Shown: piece by piece, positions 16,106-52,772 of the stretch
How positions within the stretch are numbered: position 1 is the stretch's first letter
How the letters are laid out: each line of letters opens with the position of its first letter
Source: a virus
Taxonomy: Duplodnaviria > Heunggongvirae > Uroviricota > Caudoviricetes
IMG/VR virus record: IMGVR_UViG_3300045988_029198
Coordinates: 1 to 58,013 of that record
Direction: 5' to 3' (one strand)
Length of the DNA: 58,013 nt
Translations under genes and position numbers: made by a program
The notes under the pieces: generated by a model
Database searches by the model: none
What the model was told of the DNA's origin: nothing
What the model saw: only the letters and a program-made list of their open reading frames with translations

Positions 16106-17017
16106 ATGAGTAGGAAACGTTTAACCACAGAAGAGTTTATCACGCGTGCCCGTGAAGTTCATGGACACAAATACGATTACTCGCTAGTGGAGTATGTGAA
16201 TTGGCGCACACCTGTGAAAATCATCTGTCCTATACATGGAGTGTTTGAACAAATTCCTAATAATCATTTAAAAGGACGCAAGTGTTTATTCTGTGCAGGA
16301 AATCAACAATCAAATACCAATGAATTTACCACAAGGGGGCGCGAAGTTCATGGGGGTAAGTATGGTTATTCGTTGGTGAAATATAAAGACTCTCGGGCCA
16401 AAGTGAAAATCATTTGTCCGATACACGGAATGTTTGAACAACGTCCATATAGTCACTTGCAGCAAAAAGCAGGTTGCCCACAATGTGCTTGGGAACAACT
16501 GTCTGAACAAAGACGTTTATCCGCCGAAGAATTTATTACCCGTGCTCGCGAAGTTCACGGGGACCGTTACGATTATTCGTTGGTGATGTATGTTAACAAT
16601 TCCACCTCTGTAAAAATCATCTGTCCTGAGCATGGGATGTTTGAACAGGCTCCGAACAATCACACTTCAATGAAAACCGGTTGTCCTCGGTGTTCACAAA
16701 CAGGTTTTAACCCGTCAGAACCCGGTACACTCTACGTGTTAGCTGACGATAAAAAGTGCCCTACTCTGCTTAAAGTCGGTATCACAAACGACTTAAAACG
16801 GCGACTACGACAACTACAACGCGAAACAACACACCCAGTGGTTAAACTCGTGTCGTACCCGTTTCCACACGGCGCTGATGCTTACAAACTGGAACAAGAG
16901 GTACACAAGGTCTTCCGTGAACTTAATGCGCGTCTCAAAGGCTTTGACGGTGCTACAGAGTGGTTTAAATACTCTCCTGCAATCCTCGACTACATAAATG
17001 AAAAAGCCCGGAACTAA
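16106..17017 (+). CDS. T5orf172-domain (GIY-YIG superfamily) putative homing endonuclease with three N-terminal Cys/His repeats
   Basis: 303 aa; three ~45-aa repeats EFITRAREVHGxKYDYSLV...VKIICPIHGxFEQ...C; C-terminal LYVL...KVGITNDLKRRLRQLQ T5orf172-like core. Confidence 0.7.
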   Translation: MSRKRLTTEEFITRAREVHGHKYDYSLVEYVNWRTPVKIICPIHGVFEQIPNNHLKGRKCLFCAGNQQSNTNEFTTRGREVHGGKYGYSLVKYKDSRAKVKIICPIHGMFEQRPYSHLQQKAGCPQCAWEQLSEQRRLSAEEFITRAREVHGDRYDYSLVMYVNNSTSVKIICPEHGMFEQAPNNHTSMKTGCPRCSQTGFNPSEPGTLYVLADDKKCPTLLKVGITNDLKRRLRQLQRETTHPVVKLVSYPFPHGADAYKLEQEVHKVFRELNARLKGFDGATEWFKYSPAILDYINEKARN

Positions 17018-19754: not shown

Positions 19755-20182
19755 CGCTGATTAAACCTCACCATTATTCCGGCTTTTAATATAGCACGTT
19801 CGACAAACCCGGAAGGTGTCTGTGTACTGCTACCACCATTGAGAACCCCAATGTAAGGAACGTTATTAGTAATGTGCAGTTCCTGACCATTAACTTTAAT
19901 ACTGCTAATAGTGACCGTATCCTGTTCGATACGCGCTTTACTGGCTTCAACATTACCTGTTGGTGTATCAGGACTATTAGCGGGTTGCCCCTGATCGAAC
20001 CACCAGTTGTTGCTTGCCCAGCCACTCAATATTGGTGTACCATCAGGAGGCTCACTTATGAGTATGTTACGTAGTGTTAAAACATATCTAATGACTTGAC
20101 GATCCGTAAAATCTTGTAAGTCGGCTTTTATGTCTTTAAACACTCCAGTAATACGATTTATATCATTGATTTTGCTAGTCAT
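19751..20182 (-). CDS. head-tail connector/neck protein (putative)
   Basis: ATG at codon 23 of track ORF; synteny only. Confidence 0.4.
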   Translation of the reverse strand: MTSKINDINRITGVFKDIKADLQDFTDRQVIRYVLTLRNILISEPPDGTPILSGWASNNWWFDQGQPANSPDTPTGNVEASKARIEQDTVTISSIKVNGQELHITNNVPYIGVLNGGSSTQTPSGFVERAILKAGIMVRFNQR

Positions 20183-20204
20183 TGACAAACCTAAAGGTAG
20201 AAAA

Positions 20205-21101
20205 ATGGGCGGTAAAAGACTAACCAAAGAACAACTAGAGCATAACATAAAAGATATTTGTCAATCAAAAAATTACAAATTTATAAAATGGAAAGACGGG
20301 TTTAAAAACAAAGAATCACGAATTATTTTATCTTGTGTTACACACGGGGAATGGGACACTAAATGTTATCATTTTTTGAATGGTTCTGGTTGTCCGATCT
20401 GTGGTGGAACACGAACCACAAAAGGGTTAAGAATTGCACAGATTAAAGACAGTTTAACAAATTCTAAATCAAAGTTTATTAAATTTAAAACTAATTTTCA
20501 AAATGGAAATTCTGTTTGTTTGCTGAGCTGTATTGATCATGGTGGATGGGAGACAACAGTCAATAGACTAATCTTTACATCTGTTGATTGCCCGTTGTGT
20601 ATAACGAATAGACAGAAAACTAAACAAGAACGAGAAATTGAAATAACAAATAGATGTAAAGAAACAGGGTTGTTTTTTAATAAGATATTCGACGAACATC
20701 CGACATGGAAATCTAAAATATCATTAAAGTGTTCAACGCATGGTGATTTTGTTACAACAATTAATTCTTTTCTTAGTAAACAAAAAGGTTGTCCAAACTG
20801 TAGTAAAACAGGGTTTAAAGCTGGTAAGTATGCAACACTTTATGTCTTGCGGTCCACATGCGGTCGTTACGTTAAAATAGGTGTCAGTAATTGTGTAGAG
20901 CAAAGAATTAATACACTTCGTAGAAAAACACCATTTGATTTTCAAGTAATAGAAAAATTGAATGGACACGGGGCAACCATTCGTTCACTTGAAAAAGATT
21001 TTCATTCTCATTTTGAATCTGCAGGATTAACCGGGTTCGATGGTTGTACAGAGTGGTTAAAATGGAATCCAAATATAACCACTCTGATACGGATGTTATA
21101 G
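20205..21101 (+). CDS. T5orf172-domain putative homing endonuclease (paralogue 2)
   Basis: ATG at codon 26 of track ORF; Cys/His repeats plus T5orf172-like core; AT-rich; opposite strand inside the tail/neck operon. Confidence 0.7.
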   Translation: MGGKRLTKEQLEHNIKDICQSKNYKFIKWKDGFKNKESRIILSCVTHGEWDTKCYHFLNGSGCPICGGTRTTKGLRIAQIKDSLTNSKSKFIKFKTNFQNGNSVCLLSCIDHGGWETTVNRLIFTSVDCPLCITNRQKTKQEREIEITNRCKETGLFFNKIFDEHPTWKSKISLKCSTHGDFVTTINSFLSKQKGCPNCSKTGFKAGKYATLYVLRSTCGRYVKIGVSNCVEQRINTLRRKTPFDFQVIEKLNGHGATIRSLEKDFHSHFESAGLTGFDGCTEWLKWNPNITTLIRML

Positions 21102-25573: not shown

Positions 25574-25983
25574 TATTCCACATCCTCATAATATGCAGTT
25601 CCACCGATACTATATCCCGTATATTCACCAGTCTGAAACTTTTTCAAAACTTCGTCATCAGTTATCAACGTACCAACAATGACGCCTGTCTGATCCAGTT
25701 TATCAACCAGTCCAAAACTTGCCGCAATGTCTTCAGTCATCGGAAACGCAAACACAACTTTCCCAACAGGTTGTTCATTGTGCATATTGTCCATGATGCG
25801 CTGATCAGAATTCATGAAATCCAACCATGCTTTCAGAGTGACATCCTCGGGAAATTGCTCGTTGTCCGTGTCTGTGTAAATTTCTAACTGACCTGTCTCC
25901 TGATTACGTTTTTTACAGATACTACCCCAACCGAATACCATACGTAGTGAGTTGTCAACCTTATTAACTTTTACGTTAATCAC
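25573..25983 (-). CDS. hypothetical protein (head module)
   Basis: track ORF 136 aa; GTG start overlaps upstream stop (GTGA). Confidence 0.4.
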   Translation of the reverse strand: MINVKVNKVDNSLRMVFGWGSICKKRNQETGQLEIYTDTDNEQFPEDVTLKAWLDFMNSDQRIMDNMHNEQPVGKVVFAFPMTEDIAASFGLVDKLDQTGVIVGTLITDDEVLKKFQTGEYTGYSIGGTAYYEDVE

Positions 25984-26327
25984 GGGGATTGTCCTCGTAT
26001 TGTTTCAACATGACTAAATTCTAACATTTCGGATGAATAATTGCACTGGTGATACACGCTGTTTACAACGTTACCGAATATCTCAGAAAGATTCTTGATC
26101 GGTTCAACAGCAGTCGTTACTGGTTCAACAGCAGTCGTTACTGGTTCAACACCGTCCAGATGTTCAGCGACAACCTGGAAAAACACTGTGTTAGTTTCAC
26201 AGTCAATAATAACCACTGTGCTGGAAATATCTTCAACAATGCTGAATGAGTAGTCGTAACGATCACCGTGAACTTTACGGGCGCGACGAATGAATTCGTC
26301 TGTAGCAACTCTGATGTTCGGATCCAT
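25980..26327 (-). CDS. small protein with one homing-endonuclease-type repeat and a 7-aa tandem repeat (possible HE remnant)
   Basis: ATG at codon 11 of track ORF; EFIRRARKVHGDRYDYS matches the N-terminal repeat of the three T5orf172 genes; VEPVTTA x2 from a 21-bp DNA repeat at 26101-26154. Confidence 0.45.
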   Translation of the reverse strand: MDPNIRVATDEFIRRARKVHGDRYDYSFSIVEDISSTVVIIDCETNTVFFQVVAEHLDGVEPVTTAVEPVTTAVEPIKNLSEIFGNVVNSVYHQCNYSSEMLEFSHVETIRGQSP

Positions 26328-26354
26328 ACCTTCAACCCTTCTTGTTTTCTTGAC

Positions 26355-26400
26355 CACAGGGTAGTTGTGTCGATGTAATCCGTCAAGAATTATTTTACGT
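26355..26400 (-). promoter_or_regulatory. conserved promoter module copy (minus strand)
   Basis: reverse complement of cgtcaagaattatttta at 26381-26397 gives AAAATAATTCTTGACG. Confidence 0.55.
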
Positions 26401-26484
26401 ATAGATTCATGAGAAGTATGCGACTCCCTATACCTTTTAAACCTCTTCTACTTACAACAACTTTTACTACTTATACCACTCTTC

Positions 26485-26587
26485 TATTTATTTATGTTTT
26501 CTATGTTATCTATAAAAATATAATAAAAAGAATAAGATAGAGAATAGTCGGTTAAAAAATAAACATGACGCGATCTATGAATCTATG
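26485..26587. repeat. ~95-bp AT-rich dispersed repeat, copy 1 (second copy 43476..43576)
   Basis: ctatgttttctatgttatctataaaaa.ataataaaaagaataagatagaga...ggttaaaaa.taaacatgacg..atctatg shared at ~85-90% identity between two intergenic regions. Confidence 0.8.
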
Positions 26588-26590
26588 ATC

Positions 26591-26680
26591 TACTAATACA
26601 CGTTCTGTATTAGCTGCAACTCAAAATCATGAAACCTATGTAAAACCATGTGTAGCTAATACAGAACGTGTATTAGCTGT
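26591..26680. promoter_or_regulatory. iteron/operator cluster upstream of plus-strand promoter
   Basis: two inverted copies of TAATACA-N5-TGTATTA flanked by AGCTG (about 26593-26614 and 26655-26678); AGCTAATACA motif shared with 43255-43700. Confidence 0.6.
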
Positions 26681-26682
26681 AT

Positions 26683-26730
26683 CTTTAAAATAATTCTTGA
26701 CGGATTACAGATGGTAGGGTATCTTTATCA
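26683..26730 (+). promoter_or_regulatory. conserved promoter module copy
   Basis: CTTTAAAATAATTCTTGACG, -35 at 26697-26702. Confidence 0.6.
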
Positions 26731-26771
26731 CGGGAAGCAGCGATGGGTTGCTTATGAACGAGGGTGTGAAA

Positions 26772-27155
26772 ATGGGAATGTATACCGAATTAGTGTTGAA
26801 GTGTCAGATTAAAGAAAATGTACCTGTGGATGTGAAAGCTGTTATTGCACATATGTTCTGTGGTGAAAAAGAACCAGAGAAACTACCACAACATAAGTTT
26901 TTCAGTCTCCCCAGATGGAATTTTATTGGTAGTTGTAGCAGTTTTTATCATCACCCGGAAGTAATAAATAGTTGTCCTAAATTTGATTTCACCGATACTC
27001 AATATATTTTTAGTCGTAGCGATATTAAAAATTATGATGGTGAGATTGAACAATTTATCGATTGGTTGAAACCGTATATTGATACTGAAGATGGTGCATG
27101 CATTGGTTGGACTTGGTATGAAAAAGACTTACAACCAACATTAATCATTAAATAA
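26772..27155 (+). CDS. hypothetical protein
   Basis: ATG at codon 9 of track ORF with GAGGG upstream. Confidence 0.45.
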   Translation: MGMYTELVLKCQIKENVPVDVKAVIAHMFCGEKEPEKLPQHKFFSLPRWNFIGSCSSFYHHPEVINSCPKFDFTDTQYIFSRSDIKNYDGEIEQFIDWLKPYIDTEDGACIGWTWYEKDLQPTLIIK

Positions 27156-28513: not shown

Positions 28514-29437
28514 TTGACTAAACGAAAAACAGAACATGAAAGACTTTCAGAGATTTCAGAAATTTGCAAAGGTACTATTTATCATTTTGTCAGATTCTTA
28601 AATGGTTACAAGAATGCATCAAGTAGACTAATAATGCATTGTCAAAAACATGGTGAGTGGGAAACATCCTCTGATTTGATAGTGAATGGTAGAAATTTTT
28701 GTAAGAAATGTAGTAATGAGAACATAGCACTAAAAAATAGTATAGACCAAAAAGAATATGAAAAACGTATCACTAATATTTGTAACTCGCGAGGTTATAA
28801 ATTTGTAAAATGGATTGAAAATTATCATGGTGTTCGCACAAAAGCATTAATAGAATGTACTAAACATGGTCAGTGGGTGTCTTCTGGCAACAACATTACT
28901 ATAAATAAAAGTTTCTGTAAGAAATGTTATTTTGAAAATAAAAAGACACCATTACACATAAGAGAAAAAGAGATAAACGAAAAATGTTTGTCATTAAATT
29001 ATGAATTTTTGGGTTGGGTCAACGGGTATGTTAATCAATACAGTAAGATAAAAATTAAATGTCAAAAACATGGTGAATTTATAACAACACCTACAACATT
29101 ATTACATACTGGCAGACGTTGTGCAGGTTGCGCTACAACAGGTTTTAAAATCAAAAACAAAGCTAGCTTATATGTTTTAAGATCTCTATGTGGTAGTTAT
29201 GTTAAAATAGGTATTAGCAACAATGTTGAAAATAGAATAAAAATATTGAAGAAAAGAACACCTTTCGAATTCAATGTTATTGAAATATATAATTCTGATG
29301 GTAAAACCATTCGTTCACTTGAAAAAGATTTTCATTCTCATTTTGAGTCAGCAGAGTTGACTGGGTTCGATGGTTGTACTGAGTGGTTAAAATGGAATCC
29401 AAATATAACCACTCTGATACGTATAATCACGGGATAA
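28514..29437 (+). CDS. T5orf172-domain putative homing endonuclease (paralogue 3, TTG start)
   Basis: 307 aa; Cys/His repeats plus T5orf172-like core; last 116 bp ~92% identical to the 3' end of paralogue 2; AT-rich. Confidence 0.65.
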   Translation: MTKRKTEHERLSEISEICKGTIYHFVRFLNGYKNASSRLIMHCQKHGEWETSSDLIVNGRNFCKKCSNENIALKNSIDQKEYEKRITNICNSRGYKFVKWIENYHGVRTKALIECTKHGQWVSSGNNITINKSFCKKCYFENKKTPLHIREKEINEKCLSLNYEFLGWVNGYVNQYSKIKIKCQKHGEFITTPTTLLHTGRRCAGCATTGFKIKNKASLYVLRSLCGSYVKIGISNNVENRIKILKKRTPFEFNVIEIYNSDGKTIRSLEKDFHSHFESAELTGFDGCTEWLKWNPNITTLIRIITG

Positions 29438-30559: not shown

Positions 30560-30754
30560 TCATCTTTTGTCACGAGTATAACGTCCTTTAAAACCGGGTC
30601 TGACCATCAACTTACCATTCACCACTGCGTGAAATTCACCATTGGTGTCATCCATATATTTATAAACTGTCGCTTTGTTACACCCAATCCTCCTGGCAAG
30701 TTCTGTCACATTACCATAAACGGTGGGTAGTAATTCAGAAATAGTTTGAACCAT
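30560..30754 (-). CDS. small helix-turn-helix DNA-binding protein
   Basis: 64 aa; LARRIGCNKATVYKYM HTH-like segment. Confidence 0.5.
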   Translation of the reverse strand: MVQTISELLPTVYGNVTELARRIGCNKATVYKYMDDTNGEFHAVVNGKLMVRPGFKGRYTRDKR

Positions 30755-42555: not shown

Positions 42556-43191
42556 TTATTTGAGTGCCTTCTGATACAGTTGCGCGATATCGTCGATGGT
42601 TGCACCTTCAGGAACACTCTGAACCACGTTTCCAACCACACCTGACAATTCCACACGGTCGATACTGTTCCCGGTGATCTTATCCAGTTGTTCAGACGCT
42701 TTTGCACGAGTTTTCGGGTCGAACAGTTCACGTGTCACCAGGATGTATCCGCCCAGCATGTAACGTTTGTAGCAAACTACGTACTGTTGCAGATGGCTGG
42801 GGATATCGTCGGTACTGTTCACCCACAGGTGTTTCGCTTCCGTGTCGTCTTCACCAGGAACAATGACACGCTGACAATACGGTTCCAGTAATTCTTCAGC
42901 CGTGCTTGCCGCTCGTTTCCACCACTCGACACGACTCGTTAACGATTCCCCGACAGACTCAAGCGCATGACTTCCCATCGCGTCCAGATAGTTCAACACC
43001 TTCGTATTCGACAGGAGGCGATGTGCGGTAACTTTAGCTGCGTCAGGGTCTTTATGTCCCGGATAAGCGTGTAAGACGCACTGAGCGTTGCTGAAGCCGT
43101 TATTGACACGATCTAACCACAGGTTAGCAAAACGGAGTTGATCGGTTGTTAACTCCAGAGCAGCCCTTTTAGCCCGGTCTGAAATTTTCAT
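42556..43191 (-). CDS. terminase small subunit (Terminase_2-like)
   Basis: ATG at codon 40 of track ORF with GGGAG RBS; LTTDQLRFANLWL...FSNAQCVLHAYPG...RLLSNTKVLNYL resembles TerS HTH region. Confidence 0.6.
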   Translation of the reverse strand: MKISDRAKRAALELTTDQLRFANLWLDRVNNGFSNAQCVLHAYPGHKDPDAAKVTAHRLLSNTKVLNYLDAMGSHALESVGESLTSRVEWWKRAASTAEELLEPYCQRVIVPGEDDTEAKHLWVNSTDDIPSHLQQYVVCYKRYMLGGYILVTRELFDPKTRAKASEQLDKITGNSIDRVELSGVVGNVVQSVPEGATIDDIAQLYQKALK

Positions 43192-43254
43192 AAATTTGTC
43201 TCCCATAAATTTTAAATTAGTTTCCCACAGATACCCACGGGTTGTCCACACGCC

Positions 43255-43700
43255 CTGTTTTACAGCTAATACAATGTTAGTATTAAGTTTACAGTTAGTG
43301 CACAACATGCACTAATTTTCGACCACATACATAAATAAGTAACCCATAATCACAATCATTTCAAAGACTTGCATAAAAACATAGATTACAATAGGTATCT
43401 CCCAGACTTTTATTTTAGCTCTATTTACAGCTAATACACTATATGCACTATCTCTATCTTTCTATACTACTTCTTCTTTATATCTATGTTTTCTATGTTA
43501 TCTATAAAAAGATAATAAAAAGAATAAGATAGAGAGAGGTTGGTTAAAAAGTAAACATGACGAAATCTATGTTAAGTATAACTTTAATGCACAACATGCA
43601 TTATATAATTCACAACGTGCATTAGCTGTACCAACATAGATACACAACGTGCACTAACAGCTAATACACAACGTGCATCTTGCACTAGCTGCTAACGCGC
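43255..43700. promoter_or_regulatory. AT-rich iteron cluster between divergent terS and a DNA-binding-protein gene (candidate operator / pac / ori)
   Basis: at least 5 copies of CACAAC(A/G)TGCA and 3 copies of AGCTAATACA; contains copy 2 of the 95-bp repeat. Confidence 0.55.
43476..43576. repeat. ~95-bp AT-rich dispersed repeat, copy 2
   Basis: see copy 1 at 26485..26587. Confidence 0.8.
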
Positions 43701-43739
43701 GTTATGATTTATCCGTGGTCAAACAAGAAGGGTATGATA

Positions 43740-44516
43740 ATGAAAAAGAACCTTTTAGACGAATTGATAGATTTAAAAGGCGGGGTACAAAATGCTGTTG
43801 AATACCTTAATCGTCGAGGTGTTAAGGTGACTGTTGGTCGTTACAACCAATGGTTGAGCGGTAGGTTTCATCCTAAATATGAAACGATCAGTATTATTCT
43901 TGAAGAGATTACTGACTTCACACTGTCACCCTTGCCAGTACAACATTCTGACGAAAACATTGTTCTTAAACACACAATACCGGTTACCGAACTGCGTCAG
44001 AAATTACCACACAGGCGTTTTGCTAATAACTACTGGCAACGTGTCAGATACGTTGATTCACAGATCCTGGAAGCTGTTCACGGTCACGACGTGTGGACAC
44101 GGTTTGAGGCGATGTGTGGTAATTTTGAATGCGCAAGATACGTGTTACGCAGAAATTTAAACGAACACACAATTACTGACAGTTGGATTCAGAATGGTTT
44201 GCGCCGGGGATGGGTCCCGGAATGTGTAAATGTAATGGCCGATTTGCTTGAAAAATACGAAGGCACCGGGACACCGTTTAACGTGATGGTTTGTGAAGCA
44301 CCTGTAGCACGAGTGGAACCACCTGTAGCACGAGTGGAACCACCTGTAGCACGAGTGGAACCACCTGTAGCACGAGTGGAACCACCTGTAGTCGATGTCA
44401 GCGATTTGAAGGAGAAAATCAGACTGTATGCGTTATCACACAACCCGCATTGCGATGTAGATAATATGCCTGATGATGTTGTTTTGATGATGTATAAAGA
44501 TATGATGGGTCAATAA
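43740..44516 (+). CDS. putative DNA-binding protein (N-terminal HTH-like) with (PVARVEP)4 tandem repeat
   Basis: ATG at codon 13 of track ORF with GAAGGG upstream; start ambiguous between 43704, 43734 and 43740. Confidence 0.45.
   Translation: MKKNLLDELIDLKGGVQNAVEYLNRRGVKVTVGRYNQWLSGRFHPKYETISIILEEITDFTLSPLPVQHSDENIVLKHTIPVTELRQKLPHRRFANNYWQRVRYVDSQILEAVHGHDVWTRFEAMCGNFECARYVLRRNLNEHTITDSWIQNGLRRGWVPECVNVMADLLEKYEGTGTPFNVMVCEAPVARVEPPVARVEPPVARVEPPVARVEPPVVDVSDLKEKIRLYALSHNPHCDVDNMPDDVVLMMYKDMMGQ
44299..44393. repeat. 21-bp tandem repeat, ~4.4 copies, in-frame
   Basis: cacctgtagcacgagtggaac repeated head-to-tail. Confidence 0.9.
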
Positions 44517-50417: not shown

Positions 50418-52772
50418 CTAACCGTTACTCGCAGGTGGGAAAGGCACTACATTAGCTGTTGATTGAAAATGGAGAAGACGAATACCCCTGAAACCGTTTA
50501 ATCGTACGTTATTTATATTAACAACGTCTTTTTTCACTTTACCACGAAGGGTGGATTTAAACGCCCGACTAAATGCAGTTTTAGTCATTGCTGGACCACC
50601 TTCCTGTGTTTTCCAAAGACGATAACGACCATAGAGTTCTTCAGTATGTACCTCACCATCAGATACCAATTCGCAACAATCTCTGATAAAACTTCTAAGT
50701 GGTGATTGTTGATCCATAATTTCCTGACGTTCTTCCAGACTTGCTTTTGGTTCAGTAAACCGTCCGTTTGCACGTAACCGTTGTAAACCTTCAATCGCCC
50801 AGTTACAGATCCCCGGTAGTTCTTTCATCAGTCGTGCTTCCAGAGTGGTATCTTCACGACCCAGGAACGAAATGTTGAATGGCAGGATCAGCAAACGGTT
50901 AGCCATTGCACCTGAATCATCAGCAAATGCCGGTATGTTGTTAGCAGCCAGTGTCATACGTCCCGGTAAACGACCGTTCCACGCACCTTTATACTTACGA
51001 TTAACCGGAATCGCATCACAACCTGTAATAGATTTGAAACGGTCCAGAATTCGGTTGCGATCAGGCCCGGACACACTGTGAGCATCACCAATAAACAGCA
51101 CAGATTTATCCAGCACAGTTTCAAGTACCGCATCACTGGCTAAACCCTCTAGTGTGATCCCTGCATACGCTTCATCACCTACCAGTGCCTGAATGATGCG
51201 ACCAATCGTACCTTTACCGGAACGTGGTGCACCAATCAACAGCATCGCTTTCTGATAGTCATACGAGTTGACAAGCATGTAACCCAGCCATTCCTGCAAC
51301 AATGCAATACGTTCCTGATCACCTTCCAGAGTTGTATTTAAAAACTGTTCAAACGCTGGTGCACGGGCAAACGGATCATAGCTATATGGTAAAATACTGG
51401 TCGTAAAGAAATCCGGGTTATGTGCGTCACATTTACCAGTATGTACATCCAGTATCCCGTTCTGGCAAACAATATAGTGTGATACATCAACGCCGGGCCA
51501 TGTTCCAAGCTCACGATCAGCCCGTGTGAATAAATACGACAATACCTTGTACGTACCATTAATCATGTCGGCTTTTGGTTCGCTGGCAAGCATTGCCATA
51601 GATATCTGATGTTTCAGTTCATCTTCACTGACACGTTCCCACACACGACCATTGAACCGGTACGGCTGTTGCTGGACGAAAATCAATGTGTTGTTCGGAT
51701 AATAGTTATTAACGAACGTGGATGCGTTAACCGTGTGGTTTGAACCATATGCACCTTCACCGGGTTTCACACTCATGTACGCAGGTGTTCCACCATTAGG
51801 AACGACGGTAGGCGCTGGTGTGACTGCTTTCATCAGTTCTGGTGTCATTGTCGGTTGACTACGATACACAGCATCACAACGTTCCACAGCGCCCAGAATC
51901 GTGTTTTCACGGTAATCCTGACGATCTGTCCATTTACCACGAACCAGCCCGGAACGGTTAAACAATCGTTCAATACGTTCGCAATCTTTCCCGGTCCAGA
52001 ACGCAAGGTGTGAACACAGGGCAGCATCTGCTGCTGATGCGTTGTAGTCTTTCCCCTGGTCACTAGGATATGACACAGACAGGCGTTCAACGTTTGCATT
52101 CCACAGATCCGCAAATGACGCTTTATTGCCAAATACTGAAGCAGCACTGGACGAATTTAACGCCATTTTAATCAGTTCATCGTCGTCTGTCGGTCCTGAC
52201 CAGTCATCACAAGGTGCTGTTGTCCAGCGTGCGGAACGGTCTGAACGGATACGACCATACCGGGCAATAGAATCATGAATACCCTGGGTATAATCAATAT
52301 CAACATCACCATTACCCGTGAGCGTCATCGCGACGAAACGATCACGCCAGTACATTTCCAGCCCGGTTTTCTGGTCGTTCAGACTGTTAAAACCTTCCGG
52401 TATGCTGGTATAAGCACAGATGATATGCAAACCTGTTCCTGACTGACTGACTTCGGTGTACGCGTTTGGAAAACGGTTTACGAATTCATGCGCCAGTGGT
52501 GACCACGTAGCTGTTGCCTGGTCTATCAGACAGTTATCAACATCAATAAAGAAGTACGGATCGTTTTCTGTGAATACAAAACCAACACCAGACATACCGT
52601 ACATTTGTGCCATACCTAACGCGGTGTGATAGTCAGACCAGTCGTTAGGGTTAGTGGTACTGGCTTTATAACCATGTACCGGACTGTATGGTACTTTCGT
52701 TGGTTTTTGACGATCGGCGACTGTCTCAAGTCGCCACATGACCCACTGTTTACGGTTCAGTAACCCTTTCAT
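50418..52772 (-). CDS. DNA primase/helicase (D5-like: primase-polymerase N-domain plus SF3 helicase)
   Basis: 784 aa; Walker A GAPRSGKGT in C-terminal half. Confidence 0.75.
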   Translation of the reverse strand: MKGLLNRKQWVMWRLETVADRQKPTKVPYSPVHGYKASTTNPNDWSDYHTALGMAQMYGMSGVGFVFTENDPYFFIDVDNCLIDQATATWSPLAHEFVNRFPNAYTEVSQSGTGLHIICAYTSIPEGFNSLNDQKTGLEMYWRDRFVAMTLTGNGDVDIDYTQGIHDSIARYGRIRSDRSARWTTAPCDDWSGPTDDDELIKMALNSSSAASVFGNKASFADLWNANVERLSVSYPSDQGKDYNASAADAALCSHLAFWTGKDCERIERLFNRSGLVRGKWTDRQDYRENTILGAVERCDAVYRSQPTMTPELMKAVTPAPTVVPNGGTPAYMSVKPGEGAYGSNHTVNASTFVNNYYPNNTLIFVQQQPYRFNGRVWERVSEDELKHQISMAMLASEPKADMINGTYKVLSYLFTRADRELGTWPGVDVSHYIVCQNGILDVHTGKCDAHNPDFFTTSILPYSYDPFARAPAFEQFLNTTLEGDQERIALLQEWLGYMLVNSYDYQKAMLLIGAPRSGKGTIGRIIQALVGDEAYAGITLEGLASDAVLETVLDKSVLFIGDAHSVSGPDRNRILDRFKSITGCDAIPVNRKYKGAWNGRLPGRMTLAANNIPAFADDSGAMANRLLILPFNISFLGREDTTLEARLMKELPGICNWAIEGLQRLRANGRFTEPKASLEERQEIMDQQSPLRSFIRDCCELVSDGEVHTEELYGRYRLWKTQEGGPAMTKTAFSRAFKSTLRGKVKKDVVNINNVRLNGFRGIRLLHFQSTANVVPFPPASNG

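Follow-up and report, generated by a model that had tools for sequence, protein, structure and literature searches.

Two non-coding regions in the genome of a 9NA-like phage represent, judging from the comparison of their sequences, two ancient paralogous cis-acting modules of this phage group. The module is real, conserved, duplicated and unannotated, has a candidate trans factor indicated by covariation, and goes beyond a chance repeat. The window, meaning the whole stretch of DNA that was analysed, is a circularly assembled genome of 58,013 bp with a 79-nt overlap between its ends, and belongs to a 9NA-like (Sashavirus/Nonanavirus) siphovirus. In a simple gene map of this tightly packed genome, regions 1 and 2 are the largest non-coding gaps. 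Their anatomy, their conservation, their covariation with a neighbouring protein, the low stability of their duplex and the predicted fold of that protein can be read from the sequence itself. The original prediction described region 1 and its resemblance to a second region 17 kb away. What is added here is the great age of the pair, its occurrence in every relative examined, and a candidate binder encoded beside region 2. The analysis thus yields two conserved cores, a catalogue of lineage-specific sites, and a protein family whose predicted DNA-binding end covaries with those sites.

The 9NA-like phages include the genera Nonanavirus, Sashavirus and Carvajevirus, which infect Salmonella, E. 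coli and Klebsiella and have been collected as therapeutic and model phages. They are virulent, they package their DNA by the headful from a pac site, and their virion genes alternate with clusters of small genes. No description of their replication or gene control was found in the literature covered. The replisome genes encode an NrS-1-type prim-pol with a D5_N and SF3-type (DUF5906) helicase region, an SF2 helicase and a family A polymerase. Around region 1, the E. coli phages AVIO78A, KarinMuster_Bas82 (Bas82) and PDP46 and the Sashavirus 536P12 are 94-96% identical to the window.

Anatomy of the two regions

Region 1 is a divergent intergenic region, as had been predicted. To its left, read from the minus strand, comes the head operon (XkdF-like protease, scaffold and major capsid protein), with one extra small gene first, and to its right a cluster of small genes on the plus strand. 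It is framed by two early-type promoters, the left of which heads the gene at 25980-26357 and the head operon, while the right one drives the genes starting at 26772. Both are members of a sigma-70-type promoter family with an UP element, of which the genome has about 13 near-identical copies, and the right copy is the one that the original prediction had placed just downstream of the dyads. Region 2 has the small terminase gene (terS) to its left and, to its right, a gene of the gp81/gp84 family, named after Sasha gp81 and 9NA gp84. The features of the two regions are as follows.

26342-26397, minus strand: early-type promoter copy with UP element and -35 TTGACG (CGTCAA at 26381-26386); left border of region 1
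About 26398-26683: region 1, divergent intergenic, left gene on the minus strand and right gene on the plus strand
26401-26407: ATAGATT box, which is ATCTAT on the minus strand, outward-facing, left of the core; kept in 14 of 14 aligned copies
26480-26579: core copy 1, a 100-nt AT-rich block with the lowest duplex stability of the genome, for segments of 60 bp and of 100 bp alike
26490-26516, plus strand: three abutting 9-bp units, ATTTATGTT TTCTATGTT ATCTATAAA, consensus ATCTATRYT, with phased A-tracts after them
26573-26587, plus strand: two ATCTATG boxes, 8 bp apart, the second of which holds a -10-like TATGAT
26594-26612: dyad site 1, TAATACACGTTCTGTATTA (TAATACA-CGTTC-TGTATTA)
26654-26678: dyad site 2, AGCTAATACA-GAACG-TGTATTAGCT, a perfect 10-N5-10 palindrome, with the 19-mer TAATACAGAACGTGTATTA at 26657-26675
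26684-26747, plus strand: early-type promoter copy with -35 TTGACG at 26697-26702 and -10 TATCTT at 26720-26725; right border of region 1
42556-43194, minus strand: terS, divergent left neighbour of region 2
About 43260-43700: region 2, between terS and the gp81/gp84-family gene
43267-43285: dyad left of core 2, TAATACA-ATGTT-AGTATTA, just upstream of a terS promoter-like box
43296-43314: dyad left of core 2, TAGTGCA-CAACA-TGCACTA, just upstream of the same terS promoter-like box
43380-43387: CATAGATT box, with ATCTATG on the minus strand; left limit of the homology to region 1
43432-43450: hybrid dyad, TAATACA-CTATA-TGCACTA
43472-43571: core copy 2, with its 9-mer array at 43482-43508 and an ATCTATG box at 43565-43571
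43585-43680: four 19-mers (at 43585, 43606, 43638 and 43662) in the interval that separates the core from the gp81-like gene, all with CACAACRTGCA
43740-44516, plus strand: gp81/gp84-family gene, right neighbour of region 2; encodes the candidate binding protein

The predicted AT-rich block of about 95 bp, with 85-90% identity between the two places, is borne out. The stretches 26480-26579 and 43472-43571 are identical at 89 of 100 positions in an ungapped alignment, and a gapped self-alignment extends the homology to about 280 bp (26401-26679 against 43381-43691). Both regions keep one order from left to right: the ATAGATT box, a pyrimidine-rich stretch, the three 9-mers, an A-rich stretch, one or two ATCTATG boxes and the dyads. 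The exactly phased pattern TCTAT-N4-TCTAT occurs genome-wide only in the two cores, and six of the eight ATCTATG copies of the genome lie in the two regions, the remaining two being inside long genes. The A5 tracts of the A-rich stretch are spaced 11 and about 30 bp apart. In the pair of boxes at 26573-26587, TATGAT lies 18 bp past TAAACA, and this represents a weak promoter-like site aimed at dyad site 1. The region had been called iteron-rich. The name of iterons is best merited by the three 9-mers and the ATCTATG boxes, rather than by the TAATACA palindromes.

The cores are also the least stable DNA of the genome. With nearest-neighbour energies computed along the whole genome, 60-bp windows in the two cores have a dG of -58.8 and -60.6, against a genome mean of -80.6 (sd 4.9). 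Whether segments of 60 or of 100 bp are compared, the two cores take first and second place for instability, deviating by more than 4 sd from the mean. The segment in second place (60-bp window 43471-43531) overlaps the left half of core copy 2.

Inspection by eye found no convincing match to the DnaA and IHF consensus sites in the core, and a near-DnaA box at 43243-43251 is not kept in relatives. The NrS-1 primase sequence TTTGGTTA was considered, and TTGGTTA does occur in the core of region 2, but this 7-mer is found 12 times where 13.3 are expected, which is chance. Candidate binders of the 9-mers are the conserved domain of the gp81-family protein, TerS, a NinH/Fis-like protein or a host factor. 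A small protein was also rejected as the cause of conservation: the open reading frame at 26409-26540, which codes for 43 aa and is annotated in Bas82, lacks an ATG start in region 2 and has no counterpart in 9NA, and the conserved block extends beyond its stop codon.

To the right of core copy 1, the two inverted TAATACA-N5-TGTATTA elements of the original prediction are present at 26594-26612 and 26657-26675. Dyad sites 1 and 2 are exact reverse complements of each other with their centres 63 bp apart, and site 2 directly adjoins the UP element that belongs to the plus-strand promoter at 26684-26747. Region 2 contains the arm AGCTAATACA three more times, at about 43264, 43429 and 43659. Region 2 has three sites to the left and four to the right of its core, five of these seven containing the invariant 11-mer CACAACRTGCA. 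The terS promoter-like box has the left dyads upstream of it, and the gp81-family gene the right dyads. In total, there are two dyads in region 1 and seven or eight in region 2, and dyads are confined to these regions. As a class, the sites are 7-N5-7 dyads of 15-19 bp located beside promoters. The pattern TARTDCW-N5-WGHAYTA, which covers the dyads and was fitted to known sites, has seven matches in the genome, all in the two regions, against 0.02 expected; since it was composed post hoc, it is the clustering rather than this expectation that carries meaning. In the window, the TAATACA sites of region 1 differ from most sites of region 2 at one position per half-site, and the hybrid sites at 43432 and 43662 argue for a single binding protein.

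Conservation among relatives

Both regions, with their parts in the same order, are found in phages of E. coli, Salmonella and Klebsiella, although the flanking DNA is unalignable. All relatives checked at both places (Bas82, BDX09P1, Sasha, 9NA and VLCpiS10a) contain the pair, with region 1 upstream of the head operon and region 2 between terS and the gene of the Sasha gp81/9NA gp84 family. At the position of region 1, the core is present in 9NA, SP069 and the Klebsiella phages Carvaje and VLCpiS10a, and Sasha carries the SP069-like version of region 1. The terS-proximal DNA of 9NA and the Klebsiella phages has the same architecture, diverged below BLAST detection. Among IMG/VR contigs, only four match the core, and the three of these that were examined all belong to the 9NA-like phage group. 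The records examined contain no specific annotation of these elements; Bas82 has only a small hypothetical CDS across the core.

An alignment of 14 copies separates what is kept from what is not. Conservation is limited to the ATAGATT box, the 9-mers, the A-rich stretch and the ATCTATG further downstream, all other parts having drifted or given way to different sequence. The AT-rich core and the 9-mers in it are deeply conserved, whereas the TAATACA palindromes are lineage-specific.

The likeness of the two cores to each other varies with the lineage. Identities between regions 1 and 2 were computed over the central 54 columns, and reach 96% between the two regions of the window and 100% between region 2 of the window and region 1 of Bas82, against 74% between the two regions of 9NA and 63% between those of VLCpiS10a. 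On these comparisons, the near-identity seen here is the result of recent gene conversion between ancient paralogues in the lineage of Sasha and the E. coli phages. Such conversion implies that the two cores are interchangeable. The original prediction had also proposed recombination boundaries, and this part stands to the extent that the core edge is a mosaic junction in BDX09P1 and that the cores have undergone gene conversion in this lineage; that the cores are functionless relics of such exchange is countered by their fixed loci.

The gp81/gp84-family protein and its putative sites

The neighbour of region 2 is confined to 9NA-like phages, with 16 hits. It has no Pfam family, belongs to a PHROG of unknown function, and has no match among PDB sequences. 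The protein is 259-308 aa long and consists of a variable N-terminus of about 60 aa, a conserved central domain, which is duplicated in the Klebsiella phages, a variable linker of EPPVARV repeats and a conserved acidic tail. A repeated sequence motif marks two or three HTH-like modules. Somewhere along its length, an AF2 model of the protein best matches Cro/XRE-type HTH domains, and a Cro/XRE fold is predicted. No homology to known initiator families was detected, and a comparison by hhalign with gp38 of phage SPP1 gave a probability of 0.9%, that is, no homology. The gene adjoins terS, is not among the replication genes and lacks an early-type promoter.

The N-terminus of this protein changes together with the sites beside its gene. 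Five N-terminal types pair with five site types, when the right-hand sites of region 2 are compared across five lineages and one replicate. The site types are as follows.

TARTRCA-N5-TGYAYTA: the window, Bas82 and Sasha
TAACA(C)-N5-TGTTA: 9NA and the metagenomic contig L024
CAGCTTACCAGAT: Klebsiella phages
CATATAACC-N4-TTGGTT: contig L023
AGGATTA: BDX09P1, right of the region 2 core

In 9NA and L024, the N-terminal type and the site type are both common to the two, while the surrounding DNA has diverged. The swapped segment of BDX09P1 extends from the core edge through the right-hand sites to exactly the end of the N-terminal domain, and looks like a specificity module inherited as one piece. 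From this covariation, the variable N-terminal domain probably recognises the dyads. The earlier suggestion of common operators gains accordingly in that the dyads are confined to the two regions and, in relatives, change with the predicted N-terminal HTH domain of the region 2 neighbour.

In 9NA and the Klebsiella phages, the sites of region 1 are of the same type as those of region 2. Sasha and BDX09P1 are recombinants, in which the region 1 sites mismatch the N-terminal type of their own gp81. This mismatch means that matched sites in region 1 are dispensable and that the conserved function, if any, is that of the core.

Other binders of the dyads were also considered. A phmmer or profile search of the window revealed no second gp81 paralogue that could act as a regulator, and the sole small HTH protein found there is a NinH homologue. 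The gene at 26772-27155, the nearest downstream of region 1, is unlikely to encode a TAATACA binder, as its SP069 homologue (74.5% nucleotide identity across the gene) occurs with other sites. Separately, the BFVD contains a 69-aa single-domain look-alike of gp81 in SP069.

Candidate functions and known parallels

Iterons or operators beside AT-rich DNA are a well-known kind of element, and the original prediction had listed origin-like elements among its options. The reading as origins is compatible with the sequence evidence and is the one that we prefer: tentatively, and at somewhat less than an even chance, the two regions are binding platforms for the gp81-family protein together with an unwinding element, which also regulate the flanking promoters. 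The gp81-family protein would assemble on the dyad clusters. The adjacent core, being the easiest DNA in the genome to melt, would serve as the unwinding element, and the phage primase-helicase and DNA polymerase would start replication there. The main origin would be region 2, which neighbours the gp81-family gene. Region 1 may be a second origin or a second site of binding or arrest, as with oriL and oriR of SPP1, which are bound by gp38. Once bound, the protein would in addition control its own gene and the divergent promoters on either side of each region. As a sequence feature, the architecture typical of origins is present (a repeat cluster, AT-rich DNA and an adjacent gene for a predicted DNA-binding protein), and from it we infer protein binding, unwinding and initiation. 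If this is true, it defines the origin and the initiator of the 9NA-like group and represents a second, independent two-origin layout of the SPP1 type, built from unrelated proteins.

SPP1 is the nearest parallel. One of its origins is in the initiator gene and the other in a stretch of moron genes flanked by gene 7 and the scaffold gene. Treated as a positive control, these experimentally defined origins were recovered by the signature seen here: they have in common a block of 48 nt at 87.5% identity, with short tandem repeats and unstable AT-rich DNA, and that of oriR ranks as the fourth least stable 60-mer of its genome. Both phages are lytic siphoviruses of the pac type with two dispersed regions, 13 kb apart in 44 kb for SPP1 and 17 kb apart in 58 kb here. 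Both have short direct repeats with an AT-rich unwinding element (putative here), and one region that is within or beside the gene encoding the binder (a candidate here). The location of oriR, among moron genes with a gp7-like head gene on one side and the scaffold/capsid genes on the other, is also the relative place of region 1, and the common block of 48 nt at 87.5% compares with 100 nt at 89% here. Unlike the gp81-family protein, to which it is not homologous, gp38 is DnaD-like. SPP1 also differs in that it uses a DnaB-type helicase and host polymerases in place of the NrS-1-type prim-pol/SF3 helicase and family A polymerase, and the sites here are dyads that vary with the lineage. The likeness to SPP1 is an analogy, not homology or family membership.

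Several points speak against origins: the protein is not initiator-like, its gene is away from the replication genes, the region 1 sites mismatch in some relatives, and there is no skew signal. The last adds nothing either way, as a strand-skew regression with gene orientation removed, which is uninformative here, gave no replichore signal at regions 1 and 2. Dyads beside promoters are, moreover, equally expected of a plain repressor or activator. It is possible, though somewhat unlikely, that the regions serve transcription control only, with the dyads as operators of a Cro-like gp81-family regulator that controls its own gene and the promoters of the head operon, terS and the small-gene cluster. 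In the corresponding view of the core, which we hold at the same rather low level, it would be shared UP-element or bent upstream DNA, with a -10-like TATGTT/TATGAT in ATCTATGWT and no role in replication. The Cro/XRE-type matches of the model, the 7-N5-7 form of the sites and the contact of dyad site 2 with the UP element all suit such a regulator. Dyad site 1 begins 5-6 bp past TATGAT, whose distance of 18 bp from a TAAnCA box recurs in 9NA, SP069 and the Klebsiella phages. The head operon has an extended -10 (TGATATTAT) with which the left ATCTATG overlaps in 9NA, Sasha and the Klebsiella phages. As for the gp81-family gene, its ribosome-binding site or start codon is overlapped by the last site in 9NA and the Klebsiella phages. 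The distances of 11 and about 30 bp between A-tracts also agree with bent upstream DNA. However, the late operons for terL, portal, tail and tape measure have no such core, and about 55 bp conserved at the nucleotide level across three host genera exceeds what an UP element needs. The abutting 9-bp repeats and the extreme instability are left unexplained, and viable phages (Sasha, BDX09P1) tolerate region 1 sites that mismatch the regulator. If only control of transcription were true, the phages would still offer a natural set of orthogonal HTH-operator pairs, and the locations of mosaic exchange and gene conversion in these genomes would be explained.

It is quite improbable that the core, short repeats and bent A-tracts included, is a packaging signal bound by the small terminase, like pacL of SPP1. 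Region 2 adjoins terS in all relatives, lying directly upstream of it, both TerS and the core are conserved, and 9NA uses headful packaging directed by a pac site. In SPP1, the second least stable segment is just upstream of gene 1 (terS), the location of pacL. The GenBank records of Sasha, Sergei, Solent, PJ16 and 9NA begin within region 2 at slightly different points, but this may reflect a convention of placing terS first. A pac site is expected to be single, yet every relative has two copies per genome, the older copy type is at the head operon and not at terS, and virion DNA of 9NA gives a single pac fragment. The lineage-specific dyads and their covariation with gp81 also remain unexplained by packaging. 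The literature covered, to which the key paper on this group does not belong, gave neither an origin nor a pac position for 9NA-like phages; Zeng et al. 2019 (J Virol) reportedly maps the 9NA pac site. Least probable of all, and by our estimate very improbable, is a functionless crossover sequence for recombination, a small mobile element or a small RNA gene. The mosaic junction at the core edge of BDX09P1 and the gene conversion between the cores suit a crossover sequence, but in phages of three host genera the core has kept its two loci, amid neighbouring non-coding DNA that has become unalignable. Inverted boxes of 7 bp (ATAGATT ... AATCTAT) flank the core as a mobile element might require; the idea was rejected given the fixed loci, the lack of extra copies in the genome and the shortness of these boxes, and no target-site duplication was seen around the core. 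For an RNA gene, plus-strand folding gave weak z-scores of -1.9 and -2.6, within a range of -0.1 to -2.6 for single sequences. This candidate was rejected as well, with no Rfam match in the window and no consensus structure: ten aligned core copies gave a consensus energy of -0.11 kcal/mol and no meaningful covariation.

Other replication and control systems resemble the regions in part. In the lambdoid O proteins (lambda, phi80, P22), an N-terminal DNA-binding domain sets specificity and co-varies with the sites, while the remainder is conserved. Dyad-like repeats beside AT-rich DNA and a modular protein with a variable DNA-binding end (predicted here) are common to both systems. The lambda origin differs in that it is within the O gene and occurs once per genome, and the O proteins have no sequence or Pfam relation to the protein studied here, whose model matches Cro/XRE-type HTH domains. 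The satellite phage P4 has two cis regions, ori and crr, with the same short repeats, and a fusion of prim-pol and SF3 helicase; its repeats are bound by the C-terminal domain of the alpha primase-helicase itself. P4 is similar in its two repeat-bearing cis regions, and the primase here has D5_N and SF3-type (DUF5906) domains. However, none of the comparisons made here links the 9-mers to the primase, and the resemblance to an NrS-1 primase site is at chance level. Cro/CI operators are also dyads of 15-19 bp by divergent promoters, with a neighbouring Cro/XRE-like protein (predicted here) and, to judge from the covariation, a joint change of specificity. They differ in that their systems are temperate while the phage here is virulent, with a protein of 259-308 aa and two or three HTH-like modules, and in that the sites here flank a conserved AT-rich iteron core, the whole module being duplicated.

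A further, unlikely extension of the origin reading is a new kind of initiator with multiple Cro-like HTH modules and no relation to the initiators known so far. Its variable N-terminus would read the lineage-specific dyads and its conserved domain would read ATCTATRYT; the two homologous regions would be origins, or one origin and one fork-arrest site for the switch to concatemers, a role that has been proposed for oriR of SPP1, and would in addition control the head and terminase genes. With the same low probability, and by analogy, the regions would then be a bacterial-virus counterpart of the baculovirus hrs. Those elements, whose second role is that of a replication origin, are likewise dispersed, homologous, non-coding regions of imperfect palindromes. 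A published account gives them two roles and has them enhance early and late promoters. The hrs belong to eukaryotic viruses, occur in many copies and have unrelated sequences and proteins, so the comparison is one of analogy only.

Promoter-like motifs in the window

The window carries a promoter with an UP element, TTTAAAATAATTCTTGACGGATTACA, in about 13 near-identical copies. Small-gene clusters are interleaved with the virion genes, and each copy of this promoter stands at the head of one such cluster. The bases directly 3' of the -35, GGATTACA, are also conserved among the copies, which suggests a putative regulator site common to these promoters. Additionally, there is a second promoter-like motif, TTGTCR-N16/17-CCCGTGKTAAACT, which has an extended -10 of the form TGnTAAACT and is found in a back-to-back arrangement with the UP element. 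This motif precedes terL and the tape-measure gene, and terS and the gp81-family gene have related CCGTGG boxes in their upstream DNA. The second motif may represent the late or middle promoter class.

15855, 26686, 31594, 33203, 35426, 38894, 40359, 42176, 55278, 55341 (+): TTTAAAATAATTCTTGACGGATTACA promoter copies
50399, 47771, 26397 (-): TTTAAAATAATTCTTGACGGATTACA promoter copies
38871, 15833, 43240 (-): second promoter-like motif or related boxes
43713 (+): second promoter-like motif or related box

The gp81-family protein and other candidate DNA-binding proteins

A natural module swap is seen when positions 350-560 of the relative BDX09P1 (L019) are compared with 43571-43960 of the window. 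The right-hand sites of region 2 and the first ~70 codons of the gp81-family gene have been replaced together; one junction falls at the core's edge and the other where the conserved domain of the gp81-family protein begins. The linker of this protein contains tandem repeats, whose copy number varies among relatives; the 9NA and Klebsiella versions lack them.

Two other proteins deserve mention. NinH is a Fis-like DNA-bending protein, and its homologue, annotated in 9NA and Sasha as well, may bind the A-tract core. The C-terminal 160 residues of the primase fusion, which have no domain assignment, could bind DNA, by analogy with the C-terminal DNA binding of P4 alpha.

44295-44399: 21-nt tandem repeats of the gp81-family linker, EPPVARV, 4-5 copies
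30560-30754 (-): lambda NinH homologue (Pfam E 1.6e-18)
50418-52772 (-): primase fusion, with an NrS-1-type helix-bundle domain, a D5_N domain and an SF3-type helicase region (DUF5906)

Window ends and endonuclease-like genes

The ends of the window (1-109 and 57935-58013) share a 79-nt overlap, lying within a 30-nt coding tandem repeat. The assembly was circularised at this overlap, and the true repeat number there is therefore uncertain.

Three free-standing, paralogous endonuclease-like genes are present as opposite-strand insertions in the late operons, and correspond to the repeat families D4, D5, D8 and D10. The small gene adjoining region 1, which 9NA, Sasha and the Klebsiella phages lack, contains a single copy of the N-terminal motif of these genes (FIRRARKVHGDRYDYS), as well as a 7-aa tandem repeat.

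16106-17017, 20130-21101, 28514-29437 (+): paralogous endonuclease-like genes
25980-26357 (-): small gene adjoining region 1
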